The position numbers were made by a program. A DNA stretch of 64,000 nucleotides from Escherichia coli. GTDB lineage: Bacteria; Pseudomonadota; Gammaproteobacteria; Enterobacterales; Enterobacteriaceae. Where the stretch lies: the NCBI RefSeq assembly GCF_050320075.1, contig NZ_CP190019.1; one strand, given 5' to 3'. Below are positions 9,001 through 15,000 of the stretch, piece by piece; position 1 is the first letter of the stretch; the number at the start of each line of letters is the position of its first letter.

Positions 9001-12000
9001 CAGTTTTTCTGTATCCCGCTGATTTATCATGAGAAAAATTTGTCTGTTATAGGGGGTAACGACCTGAATATTTTCCTTATCTAAAAGCATGAGAAATTCA
9101 TCTTCATCTTGTATCAAATCATCAAGACTTATTTGCCTTCCTTCTGTATAAAAAACAAGCGCGCCGCTATAATTTTTACTAAGGTAAGGCATGAGCAGTT
9201 CTTCGCGCAGATTTTCCCGGTTTGCGAGTTTTTCATTTGTTATCGCTACAAGTGACTGTGCCATATCCTCAAGTTCGTTATTTGCAGAATGTAATAATTC
9301 ATTCTGAATTTCATGGTCTAAGTAGCTTTGAATAAAATGATAAAGAACACCTTTTTTACTATCTATACCATGATAATCTTCCGCACAGAGATTTTTATAT
9401 GCTATCATGGCAAGTAGTTTGGCCAGATTTTCCCGACTATTGACTAAATTCTGATAGAGTCGAAACTCATTTGTAATATTATGCATTACACGCATATTGG
9501 GAATAAATGTCGCAATACGAGAAATACATTCGCTTAAGTTATTATTTATCTCTTCTTCTTTGAATTTTTTAACAAAATGCTCATAAGCATTCTGGTTATC
9601 CATCACTGGAATAACAGGCATAACAAAATCAAAGAATTTCGTTCTTGACTCTGCTGAGTTGAAAATACCATCTCTGACAGCATAAATAAATTTTACAGGT
9701 TTTCTGTCAGAAAGGCAGTTATTAATAATTTGATTGATTTCCCGCAATTTCACGAAAATCCGGCCATTGTTAAAACGGTCAAGATCTTCGAATATCACTA
9801 CATCATATTTAGTCGAATCAAAAAAATAGACAATTTCATCAATATAGACATTAAGTAAAGAAGGTGATGATGCCCGGGTTGTAACAGCGCCTTTCAGAAG
9901 GTCCACTTTATCAAGACTTACTTTCCTGTCAAATATACCGATACGATGTAACTGGTTCAAAAGCAGGCATAACGATCCCATCACAGATGCCACTGCACCG
10001 GACACACGCACCCCAAACGGGCATTCAAGAAGGTAACGGGCGAATGCTCCCGGCAAAGATAGCTTTGTTGTAACGTAATCCGGCGCAAGGAAAAATAAAG
10101 CAGCTCCACTCAGTAAAATGGTTCCTGTCAGAAAAGACGCAGACCGCAATATTTGTCCCGCAGTCACATCTGATATACGGTCAATGCGGGAACAGGGAAG
10201 CTCATGCTTTTTATTTTTGTAGAGTATTTGTTGCAGAATACTGTATTCAATAGATTTTTCAACACTACCAGTATTTTTCGTCCCTTCGTCACTACTGCTG
10301 TCCCCATTACTTTCATCCACATGTCTCTGCATATCAAAATCAGCAAGAGAAACGGTTAACACCCGCAGTGTCCCATTGTGAGCTTTGCACCATGTTTTTA
10401 ATACTGAGCTTTTCCCTGCCCCATACGGCCCGGTAACAGCAATATTCCGGATATCCGGATGTTCATAAGCATAATTAAGCGCGCTGATATAACAGCCTGC
10501 TTTATCTGAGTCGAGTTCTGTCGGAGTCAGTGCTTCATAGCTCACTGCATTTGCCTCAGCATGATCACTATCGGCAACGATCGGTGTCAGCCACGGTGTG
10601 GACATTATCATTGATACAATTCCGTTGTTGTTTTAGTTACATTTTACTGGTTTTATTCCGCTTTTATCTCAAGCATGGATCTCTGAATTTCTTAACTTAA
10701 CCAGACGAGAAGAAAGCAGGCAAAGGCAACCGTACTTACCTGAAGAGACGACTGTGATAGCATAAATCGATTTTTAAGACGATAATTTTCCTCTTACCGT
10801 ACGTTTTCGTACGGTTGGCCCTCAAACCCCTATCAGGCCTGCCGTGGAGATTTTGTGGTGCGTCTCGACGGCAGCACCTGTCTGCAGTTATGGAATAAAG
10901 AAGGCAGAGTGGTACGCCGGGAGGGCGATCCGCTGGAAGTGGCGCAGTGGCTGCAGGCCTGTCATGATGCCGGAATAGAAGTTCGTGTACAGGTTAATGA
11001 AAGCGTCACTCCGTAAAAACATGCCAGCACGGTTTACACATCATCCCATGATGGCAGCCGCTTAACTTTCCTGCGCCACCAGTGGAAAGAGGCCATGAGC
11101 AGTCCGAACAAAAAACCCCCCGTGATACTTATAATAATGGCCTCACCTGCCACCATTCCTGACGGCCCCCAGTAGATAAACCACATTGCACATCCCCAGG
11201 AAATGCCCCATAAGCCCCCCGTCAGCACCGTGACCTGCCAGAACGGCATAAAGGGTAATGGCGGAAGCCGGATACCCAGCCGCCAGAGAATACGCAGAAG
11301 AGGAGGGGCATAATTGCTCCGCCACATCTTTTTGCTGTCCATCAGGGCAATGGCCCGGGCTTTTTTCTGCTCAAAGGTCACAGGAGCACCTCCGTTCCAT
11401 GATGTAAACGTGACACAGCTTATTGTTATTGATTATTATTATCATGCTGTGATTATGTTGTCATGCACCGGTACACTGACAAAAGAAAGGGAGAACAGGA
11501 GGCCGGCTGATGAACAGGAAATATTATCTTAATCCGCGTAAGCGGGCCGTGAGGGCCGCTTACAAGCGTGTATGAGATCAGTTTGGATATTCGAAATTAT
11601 TGTACGTTTAACGCACCATACATTAATGCTAATGTATGCATACATTAGCATTAATGATGAAGGAAAAGAATAACAATGGCAGTCAACCCACTTCTTTTTT
11701 GGATTTCTTAATTTTCGTCTGATAAAGCCGCTTTACCCGTTCAATTTCTGCCAGCGTTGCGGACCAGTGTAGTTCGGCGGCATGACGATATCTGGCAGCC
11801 ATTTTTTCCACCATCTCCGGATTGCTGTCCGCGCTGCGGTGCTGACGCCCCTTCTCCCCAAAAACTTCAACAACCAGCCACTGGCTTCCGGTTCTGCCGA
11901 ACAATGCCTTGCACAAACGTCTCACAGTCAGCGGGGTTAAATCTGGATCGGGATCATAGGCAATGGTAGCAAAAATAAAGCGCAGCATTTCTGATGTCTT

Positions 12001-15000
12001 GTAACGCTTTACGCTGGCAGCCAGGCGTGCGGCACGTTGCGGTGCTTCCCAGCGGTCGTTACTGTAATTAGCCACTTCAGCCAGATAATCCTTTTCAAGT
12101 TTTTCAGCCGTGTAGCACCTGCCGCCTAAAAAAAGCCGCATGGCCTCCCTGGTTTTATTTCTCACATATCATCCCTCATTAATGCTAATGTACGCATACA
12201 TTAGCATTAACATACTGACAGTAACAAGCGGCGGATTTACGTCTGGATAACGTAAATGATTGCGGTATACAGGCCAGTCGGTCAGATTTTCAGCCGGGCC
12301 TGTTCCTGCAGCAGTTCCAGATGATATGCAGCAATAGCGTTTACCACCCCTGCCGCCATCCGTGCGTCGGCGATCGCTGAGTGTGCCTGCCCTTCCCAGG
12401 TCAGTCCGGCCTGGCTGGCAGCACAGGCCAGTGAAATCGTGCCATAGCGGTTGGTGGCCCCATAATATCCTGCAGCCAGCTCCATCGCACAATATACCGT
12501 CATTTCTTCCAGCCAGTCAGCCGGATCGCTATGTGCGGCCGCAGTCTGTTTCAGAATGCGGATGTCGAACCGGGAATTAAAGATAATTACTGGTCGATCT
12601 CCGATTGCATGCCGCAGTTGCCGCGCCACATCTGTCCATGATGGTGCGCCGCAGAGAGCCTGCTCACTGATACCATGCACAGCGGCGGCCTGCGCCCCGA
12701 TGGCGACCGTGGGCTTCAGTCTGGTTTCAAATACCACCTGACCGGCCGCATCGGTCAGGCCGATTTCCAGGGCTTCCGCGGTATTATCCAGTCCTGTCGT
12801 TTCAGTATCCAGAAAGAGTGGTGCCAGACTCAGCCAGTCATATGCCTGCCGTGCCATCCGGCCACTGGTGCTGTTTAGTCGGGATAAAACGGAAAGCCGC
12901 TGGCCAGCCAGCTGTTGTTTACTCGTCAGAGGGCGTTTCTCACGCATCGGAACACAGTCTGCAATTCGGTATACAGCGAACCTGCCACCATAACTATTTT
13001 TATACCACTTAACCGGCTCAGCACCGGGGGCTGGCTTCATTCTGAATTCATCGCGCAGACGTCCTTTCGAGAAACACCTGTCTTCGGCAATCGCCTGCGC
13101 ACGTCTGGTGACCAGCTCATCATTATTCATGGTTCTTGCATCTCCGTCAGACGTTTTTATATCCGGACAGCCCCTCTATGGCCACTTCTGTACAGTATGC
13201 AATACTCGCAGGATATACACTTTTCCCCACTGGCTGTCGACCTCATAAACCAGAACAAAATGCGGGTGAATAACCAGTTCCCGGGTACCTTCCACACGAC
13301 CGTTGCGGCCTTTATACGGCTGCCCGGCCAGGTTGCTGGCTGAATAACCAATCCGTTCGTCCAGTTCAATGGCGGCTATCAGGTTCTGCTCCGCAATGTA
13401 CTCACGAATGCGCTTCCTGTCCTGGCTGGCCAGCATGGTCCAGAATATCTCCATCATTTACCGGCGACTTTCCTGCTCATTTCATCCCGCCATGCAGCAG
13501 CGGAAGATTCGACCATGTCATGGGGAAGTAGGGGAGCCCGCAGAATTCGGAAAAAATCGTACGCTAAGGTTTTCCGGGCATCCGTAAGGGCCGAAACTTC
13601 CCGTCTTCCAGTCTGCGGCTCTGCCGCCAGACGTAATCGCCGGTTAGGTTGATGTGCTCCCAGCCCAGCGGCGACAGGAATTGCAGCAGCTCGCCGTCCA
13701 CCGGCTTGCCGGCCTCGACCAACCCCTGGGTGGCGCGTTCCAGGTACACCGTGTTCCACAGCACGATAGCCGCCGTCACCAGGTTGAGGCCGCTGGCCCG
13801 GTAGCGCTGCTGCTCGAAGCTCCGATCCCTGATTTCCCCAAGGCGGTTGAAGAACACCGCCCTGGCCAGCGAGTTGCGCGCCTCACCTTTGTTCAGGCCG
13901 GCATGCACGCGGCGGCGCAGTTCAACACTTTGCAGCCAGTCCAGGATGAACAGCGTGCGCTCGATCCGGCCCAGCTCGCGCAGGGCCACGGCCAGTCCGT
14001 TCTGGCGCGGGTAGCTGCCGAGCTTGCGCAGCATCAGCGAGGCGGTGACGGTGCCCTGCTTGATCGAGCTGGCCAGGCGCAGGATGTCGTCCCAGTGGGC
14101 ACGCACGTGCTTGATGTTCAGGGTGCCGCCGATCAGCGGGCGCAACGTCGGGTAGGCTTGCACGCCCTGCGGCACGTACAGCTTGGTTTCGCCGAGGTCG
14201 CGGATGCGCGGCGCGAAGCGGAAGCCTAGCAGGTGCATCAGGGCAAAGACGTGATCGGTGAAGCCGGCCGTGTCGGTGTAGGGGTCTGACGCTCAGTGGA
14301 ACGAAAACTCACGTTAAGCAACGTTTTCTGCCTCTGACGCCTCTTTTAATGGTCTCAGATGTCCTTTGGTCACCAGTTCTGCCAGCGTGAAGGAATAATG
14401 GCCGAGCATATTGATATGTCCGTGGCAAAGCGGGGAGAGGCGTGCGATATCTTCATCATTCAGTGTTTCACCCTGCGCCCGGAGATGATCCAGGGCTGCC
14501 TGCATATAAATAGTGTTCCATAACACGACGGCGTTAGTGACCAGCCCCAGTGTGCCCAGTTGATCTTCCTGACCGTCGGTATATCGTTTTCTTATCTCAC
14601 CTTTTTGACCGTGACAGATGGCTCTGGCAACGGCATGGCGACTTTCTCCCCGATTAAGCTGGGTCAGAATGCGCCGGCGGTAATCTTCATCATCAATATA
14701 ATTAAGCAGATACAGCGTTTTGTTGATGCGCCCCACTTCAATGATTGCCTGAGTCAGTCCGGAAGGACGTTCACTTTTCAGCAATGAACGGACCAGCACT
14801 GAAGCCTGTACTTTGCCCAGCTTCAGGGAGCCAGCGGTCCGGATCATTTCGTCCCACTGAAGGACTATTTTTCGGGGATCTGATTGCCCTCTGGCAATAT
14901 CATTCAGCACGCCATAGTCGGCATCATGGTCCATTCGCCAGAAAACCGAAGCACCGGCATCAGCCAGGCGTGGAGAAAACTGGTATCCCAGCAGCCAGAA

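Follow-up and report, generated by a model that had tools for sequence, protein, structure and literature searches.

A yadA gene bracketed by paired palindromes is a recurrent module of Enterobacterales plasmids

Introduction

We analysed a 64,000-nucleotide stretch of Escherichia coli DNA (NCBI RefSeq assembly GCF_050320075.1, contig NZ_CP190019.1; hereafter the window), in which an initial annotation had singled out a 160-aa open reading frame lying between two palindromes, next to a putative exonuclease gene. In the naming used for R64, ColIb and F, this frame is YadA, not to be confused with the unrelated Yersinia adhesin. The palindrome-yadA-palindrome arrangement is real and widespread, and it looks like a previously undescribed protein-plus-site module; the exonuclease was already known. 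Our preferred reading, to which we assign a probability of about 0.5, is that YadA most likely recognises the hairpin or palindrome and autoregulates, and that the unit moves as a module. We infer binding by YadA solely from its association with the site, the geometry of the unit, co-divergence, and protein chemistry.

Carriers of the palindrome include resistance and virulence plasmids of the IncF, IncI, IncX, IncHI, and Klebsiella FIB(K) groups. A hairpin element with a dedicated protein could offer a possible handle on plasmid gene control, stability, and mosaic recombination.

Results

The region studied matches IncFIB/FIC E. coli plasmids, pL65-2 among them, at 100% identity, which bears out an earlier guess of plasmid origin, and the window is part of an IncF E. 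coli plasmid. The yadA gene, which starts with GTG and encodes a basic all-alpha protein, occupies 11683..12165 on the minus strand, and RefSeq annotates the same 160-aa frame at the same coordinates on an identical plasmid. Downstream of the gene lies P1 (11621..11656, strandless), a perfect 36-bp palindrome of 18+18 nucleotides (nt) whose centre is 44.5 nt beyond the yadA stop codon. Upstream lies P2 (12177..12212, strandless), in which two perfect 14-nt arms (12179-12192 and 12197-12210) enclose the 4-nt centre CGCA; it lies 70 nt past the yacC stop codon and its centre is 29.5 nt ahead of the yadA start. A Shine-Dalgarno (SD)-like GAGGGA (12172..12177, minus strand), 6 nt ahead of the GTG, overlaps P2 by 1 nt. 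The two palindromes are 97% identical across 34 nt, with two mismatches in 34 nt by pattern search, and they are the sole matches in the window at up to three mismatches, where 100 shuffles gave an expectation of 0. Both of the near-identical 36-bp palindromes described by the initial annotation were thus located, P1 being perfect. The core of the palindrome family can be written as TTAATGCTAATGTA-YRCR-TACATTAGCATTAA.

We scanned 100,044 species genomes and metagenome data and also fetched loci via the protein, which gave 152 loci in total. Of the 77 yadA genes that are full-length and have sequence on either side, 73 carry palindromes on both sides and the remaining four carry one upstream only, in support of the proposed tie between the palindromes and the 160-aa gene. 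In bracketed modules the median palindrome-to-palindrome spacing is 541 bp. The upstream centre stands 28.5-31.5 nt ahead of the start codon, with the SD sequence abutting the palindrome in nearly all homologues, while the downstream centre mostly lies 24-28 nt past the yadA stop codon.

The bracket persists to 33%-43% YadA protein identity. Bracketed loci were found via the protein, and not via the site, on IncP-like, Klebsiella, pSEV, and IncHI1 plasmids; locus L025, with a 43%-identical YadA, and locus L024 are likewise bracketed, and L153, with a 33%-identical YadA, has its own shorter variant CTAATGGATATATCCATTAG at both positions. Two very distant YadA-like loci (L154 and L157) have no palindromes, and a third (L155) has two unrelated ones. 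In IncP-like and Klebsiella IncFIB(K)/HI1B copies, the gene DNA is 76%-79% identical to that of the window with the palindrome arms unchanged, and these copies align to the window from palindrome to palindrome. The palindrome is far better conserved than the yadA gene. At some loci two or three upstream palindromes of different variants stand in tandem, 77-183 nt apart (L066 7089-7197, L085 2582-2696, L092 853-961, and L024 293-647).

The palindrome was found on 3,889 of 72,556 PLSDB plasmids (about 5%) and yadA on 3,588, with one to six palindrome copies per plasmid. The carriers belong to the IncF, IncI1, IncI-gamma, IncI2, IncX1, IncX4, IncP-like, IncHI, and FIB(K) groups. Among complete E. 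coli genomes the palindrome occurs in 1,068 of 5,426 (about 20%), at 3,772 plasmid versus 46 chromosomal places (99% plasmid), and both the palindrome and yadA are absent from 50,697 phage records. A chromosomal REP/BIME repeat or a host transcription-factor site was rejected on these counts; the initial annotation had itself raised the possibility of a common REP-like repeat, and the palindrome is almost never chromosomal.

A more general version of this objection is that the palindrome is a generic repeat or terminator unrelated to YadA and that the bracket is a historical accident. Solo copies without yadA do exist, as this reading would have it. However, the bracket and its fixed geometry are found in 73 of 77 genes over a range of 33%-100% protein identity, no U-tract follows the palindrome, and the element is almost absent from chromosomes. 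The conserved bracket largely refutes this reading, which we consider very improbable.

YadA belongs to a narrow family, restricted to Enterobacterales plasmids, that falls into 182 clusters at 90% identity and has 165 representatives at 50%. The AlphaFold model (pLDDT 89) is all-alpha, with six helices, the C-terminal one of 44 residues. The isoelectric point (pI) is 9.9 in the window and 7.8-9.9 across the family (median 9.4), and the conserved R, K, S, T, and Q residues concentrate on helix 41-66 and around FGRTGSQ. YadA has no relative in Pfam, NCBIfam, PADLOC, PHROG, or PDB, and resembles neither ParB/KorB nor helix-turn-helix (HTH) repressors in sequence or fold. A RAYT or IS200-type Y1 transposase was rejected on the lack of a Pfam match, the all-alpha model, and the lack of a PDB match; the histidine-hydrophobic-histidine (HUH) motif is not conserved in 25 aligned homologues. 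Nor did the PADLOC screen, which the initial annotation had proposed, place yadA or yacC in a defence system: yadA has no match and yacC has matches at the domain level only, the full-length Tmn match being to a separate gene nearby.

Evidence for a folded element comes from a covariation test on 61 distinct sites with a 14-bp stem and 500 shuffles. The stem is 93.8% paired over these sites, and slid controls fall to 23%-39%. Double changes occur at 7 of the 14 stem pairs, pair 5-28 being seen as U-A, A-U, G-C, and C-G; compensated cells number 31, against 9.5 ± 2.7 in shuffled data, and none of the 500 shuffles reaches the observed value. The central four bases (YRCR) vary freely, in a loop-like manner. 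The outer arms differ between the two sites of a module in 42 of 76 cases, often as distinct self-complementary variants such as TTGATGC...GCATCAA upstream and TCAATGC...GCATTGA downstream. Because a change of specificity in the protein would alter both sites alike, it is pairing within each site that is maintained. Judged from these substitution patterns, the covariation is more suggestive of a hairpin or cruciform than of a plain double-stranded operator. The near-invariant upper stem GCTAATGTA, an invariance that is partly ascertainment, suggests sequence-specific recognition as well.

If transcribed, the palindromes are predicted to form stable RNA hairpins (-15 to -22 kcal/mol, z -4.6 to -6.8; for P1, -21.8 kcal/mol and z -5.5). 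It is possible, if somewhat unlikely, that the element acts at the RNA level, the 5' hairpin by the SD sequence controlling the translation or stability of yadA mRNA and the 3' hairpins, which follow yadA, yacC, toxin-antitoxin operons, and other units, marking places of processing or of protection against exonucleases; YadA may then be an RNA-binding partner or be unrelated. The fixed spacing to the SD sequence and start codon, the stem covariation, and the stability of the hairpins are all in keeping with such a role, as are solo copies that lie soon after co-directional stop codons and far from the next start. Sense-strand G.U is also somewhat commoner than A.C (25 versus 16), although this bias is weak and does not tell an RNA hairpin from a DNA hairpin or cruciform. 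Other observations fit poorly: the upper stem is nearly invariant in sequence and not merely in structure, a terminator-like hairpin stands ahead of several solo sites so that the transcript may stop earlier, and the upstream copy lies within a divergent intergenic region in L006 and L030. No Rfam family reaches its gathering score at the window palindromes, and nothing was found at solo sites either, which speaks against a known noncoding RNA. Both palindromes (11620-11657 and 12176-12213) have sub-threshold Rfam matches to mir-155 (27 bits versus a gathering score of 56), and we attribute these to chance because TTAATGCTAAT equals the miR-155 5' end.

In a further reading, the hairpin would form on the transferred or lagging strand and be an element of the single-strand stage of conjugation or replication, such as a priming signal, a single-stranded DNA (ssDNA) promoter, or a protective structure, with YadA as an early hairpin binder. 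Conjugative plasmids make up 2,756 of the 3,889 carriers, several modules and solo sites occur among genes of the leading-region type (FinO-like, SOS-response-associated peptidase (SRAP), DnaJ-domain, and DUF945 genes, or by traKLM or TraI), and a perfect palindrome folds alike on either strand, which fits the absent strand bias. On the other hand, 963 carriers are non-mobilisable, and in the window the module is next to the replicon and colicin region, outside the leading region. An Frpo-type ssDNA promoter needs a stem that rebuilds both the -35 and -10 boxes (PMC9849209), and we rejected this candidate on the grounds that a stem of only 14-16 bp would seem, on length, too short. Taken together, we regard a single-strand role as improbable.

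Further candidate sites were compared by eye with consensus sequences: Fur, SlyA, ArcA, Tus, and Xer sites did not fit, and no likeness to dif/cer (XerC/XerD arms) or attC was seen. The palindrome sequence is printed in no paper of the literature searched.

The palindrome also occurs alone, on many other plasmids of gut bacteria. The 152 loci hold 63 solo sites that have no yadA next to them, and 39 of these lie over 700 nt from the end of their contig. The units ahead of solo copies include RelE/HigB-type toxin-antitoxin operons of two kinds, an SRAP gene, yacABC, FinO-like genes, and a gene adjacent to traL. Beyond the copy, 130-600 nt pass before the start of the next gene, and in several contexts a GC-rich terminator-like hairpin lies between gene and palindrome. 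With perfectly conserved solo copies on yadA-free plasmids, the site has an independent life.

Several short sequences were noted in the vicinity of the palindromes. In four unrelated contexts, and in either orientation, the 8-mer CGTACAAT, which may be a TACAAT -10 box, is found at a distance of 17-100 nt from plasmid palindromes (window 11590-11602, L028 ~3015-3030, L005 ~3952-3962, and L004 ~4098-4110). In several loci that are otherwise unlike one another (L005 4033-4058, L014 7716-7739, and L085 2614-2640), a motif rich in CACACAC(A/G)AA(T/C), about 25 nt long, directly borders the palindrome on one flank. A second, unrelated short palindrome (GTGTATTAATACAC-like) is found about 25 nt from the solo site on IncX4/IncI2 plasmids (L004 4060-4078 and L028 3090-3115). 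On a Photorhabdus contig (L009), a solo palindrome stands 8 nt after a HigA-like antitoxin gene, and the same contig carries a group II intron domain (RF02005, 106 bits) at 4392-4635.

One flank remains with the palindrome as the opposite one varies: each of three flank families is joined via the palindrome to at least five different partners. Homology among IncF, IncP-like, Klebsiella, IncI-gamma, and IncI2 plasmids often ends at or within tens of nucleotides of a palindrome. Such junctions raise the question of a recombination or mobile element (REP/RAYT-, pdif-, or cassette-like), in which the palindrome would act as a substrate in DNA rearrangement, with YadA as a hairpin-specific factor maintaining or spreading it and the palindromes as junctions of mosaicism. 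The bracketing of the gene by its own palindromes together with dispersed solo copies, as in RAYT/REP (PMC3337134), and the tandem palindromes, 77-83 nt apart, upstream of some yadA genes would agree with this. Moreover, an 893-bp segment that contains palindrome-yadA-palindrome is present in L014 (7670-8561) and absent in the IncX4 locus L026 (21378-21394), with a 7-8-bp direct repeat (CCTGCCC) at its ends; it could reflect insertion with target duplication or microhomology deletion. However, this segment has no terminal inverted repeats and its ends lie 70 and 250 nt off the palindromes. At SRAP loci, the breakpoint that recurs falls 21 nt past the palindrome and not within it; an SRAP locus without the palindrome is a single example, with unrelated downstream DNA. 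A synthetic empty-site query recovered no precise yadA-less derivative of the window backbone among the full-coverage matches listed, all of which retain yadA. YadA itself has neither an HUH motif nor a Y1-transposase match and is predicted to be all-alpha, and a shared identity of 32-36 bp could yield junctions via ordinary homologous recombination. We therefore consider a recombination element unlikely. If the palindrome does mark recombination junctions, it would help explain the exchange of modules among resistance-plasmid backbones.

The gene order on the minus strand of the window is yacB, yacC, P2, yadA, P1, a DUF6404 gene, and a full-length Tmn anti-phage ATPase gene. Upstream of yadA on the coding strand is the exonuclease gene yacC (12282-13130, minus strand; ColIb/R64 naming), a frame of 282 aa. 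The C-terminal part (residues ~105-265; 12336..12818, minus strand) is a DnaQ-like DEDDh 3'-5' exonuclease domain, containing LFLDTETTGLD and H250-x4-D255 and matched by Pfam RNase_T over residues 106-262. The residues D108, E110, D189, H250, and D255 are invariant in 18 YacC homologues, and these motif residues combined with the RNase H-like exonuclease fold and profile match place YacC in the DEDDh (DnaQ-like) family. The DnaQ-like exonuclease proposed by the initial annotation therefore has a complete active site, in contrast to a truncated paralogue. YacC scores 53.5 bits against TIGR01406, below the cut-off of 222.7, and a true dnaQ (Pol III epsilon) was rejected; on these profile scores, YacC is a member of a plasmid paralogue family and not dnaQ itself.

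The N-terminal ~100 aa (12831..13130, minus strand) form a small beta-rich domain (residues 19-61, with conserved C19, K32-P33, and C59) followed by two helices (70-101). Residues 1-100 have no sequence match in Pfam, NCBIfam, or PDB, and PHROG 25825 (function unknown) is recorded for this part. The extension had been called novel: it does match nothing known, but it is conserved across a large family (476 matches) and is not specific to this locus. PADLOC gives only domain-level DEDDh and PDC-S48 matches, and NCBI already annotates YacC as "3'-5' exonuclease"; apart from its N-terminal domain the protein is ordinary. The suggested link between the exonuclease and the bracketed gene proved loose. 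Five independent contexts place a yacC homologue near yadA, in an order that may be tandem, convergent, or, behind a KfrA-like gene, divergent; the proximity holds in some loci only and the orientations vary. YacC is a neighbour, not an obligate partner, of yadA.

The first intact gene of the yacABC unit, which ends at P2, is yacB (13176..13457, minus strand), encoding a RelE/ParE-type toxin. At 13454-13568 of the window, all that is left of the yacA antitoxin gene is ~22 codons from its end (HDMVESSAAAWRDEMSRKV.GK), which adjoin fragments of transposase and a terminal repeat of the Tn3 family, ggggagcccgcagaattcggaaaaaatcgtacgctaag (13531-13568). The intact toxin gene has lost its partner and probably its promoter as well. 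Past P1, a DUF6404/PHROG 31022 gene (11034-11381, minus strand) precedes the Tmn anti-phage transmembrane ATPase gene (PADLOC Tmn, 1-1273 of 1273; 6790-10611, minus strand).

A KfrA-like gene, whose product has an N-terminal DNA-binding region and a long coiled coil, is found close to yadA, or in divergent orientation to it, in a subfamily of ~52% identity (L006 3915-5886, L013, L030 3607-4722, and L085 31-816). In L006 a yacC homologue directly follows the KfrA-like gene.

Discussion

In the reading that we prefer, the 32-36-nt palindrome would be a hairpin- or cruciform-forming cis element of a self-contained, portable palindrome-yadA-palindrome module. The factor that recognises it is most likely YadA, which is small, basic, and helical and probably forms dimers. 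Bound to the upstream copy, either as DNA or as the 5' hairpin of the mRNA, and positioned against the ribosome-binding site, YadA would curb its own synthesis; the downstream copy would be a second site closing the unit. Solo copies behind other operons may be orphan targets or relics of the same element, and YacC would be an ordinary plasmid exonuclease whose gene ends at one such site.

Several points weigh against this reading. No sigma-70-like promoter is predicted at the upstream palindrome. Solo copies stand 9-180 nt past the stop codons of co-directional units and not in promoters, and one complete IncX4 plasmid has a single perfect palindrome and no yadA anywhere; solo palindromes on yadA-free plasmids are hard to square with a role as YadA operator only. 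Most loci were retrieved by a match to the palindrome core, so that the invariance of the inner stem is in part a product of ascertainment. Finally, template switching inside quasi-palindromes can restore symmetry by mutation, without selection.

The initial annotation had described the palindromes as operator or recombination sites and not simple terminators. The latter part stands, as an intrinsic (Rho-independent) terminator was rejected: the stems are AT-rich, no T-run follows, and a terminator scan reports neither palindrome. The former part fares less well, since the covariation favours a hairpin or cruciform and the solo copies lie outside promoters.

Comparison with known systems

YacC differs from DnaQ (Pol III epsilon), ExoX, and RNase T in its additional conserved N-terminal ~100 aa and in being encoded on plasmids.

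Regarding the module itself, pdif modules of Acinetobacter plasmids and integron cassettes are single genes bounded by inverted or palindromic sites, found in unrelated backbones, and solo sites exist. The palindrome-yadA-palindrome unit resembles them as a single-gene unit in unrelated plasmid backbones that likewise has solo sites. Unlike them, it has no associated recombinase, some breakpoints lie outside the palindrome, and by eye there is no XerC/D or attC likeness.

KorB and the OB sites of IncP-1 plasmids offer a regulatory parallel, in which a global regulator acts at dispersed palindromic operators; some repressors have operators on both sides of their gene. YadA shares with KorB/OB the combination of a small basic plasmid protein and a recurring conserved palindrome with one copy by its own start. 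It differs in lacking any likeness to ParB/KorB or HTH proteins, and both the covariation and the positions after stop codons are unexpected for duplex operators.

The arrangement is also that of RAYT/REP/REPIN systems, in which RAYT genes are flanked by palindromes and further REPs are dispersed (Bertels & Rainey 2011, PMC3337134; Messing et al. 2012, PMC3479197). As in these systems, a gene of ~500 bp is flanked by a specific hairpin palindrome, more copies are dispersed downstream of genes, and each YadA lineage goes with its own palindrome variant; cognate flanking palindromes bracket 73 of 77 genes, and 63 solo sites represent the dispersed copies. In contrast to RAYT/REP, YadA has no HUH/Y1 signature, the copies number one to six per plasmid and not hundreds per chromosome, and any mobility of the module would be hypothetical. 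Tentatively, and as a rather doubtful possibility, YadA and its palindrome might be a plasmid counterpart of RAYT/REP built on an unrelated all-helical protein, which would maintain, copy, or recombine the element and set the junctions at which plasmid backbones reshuffle.

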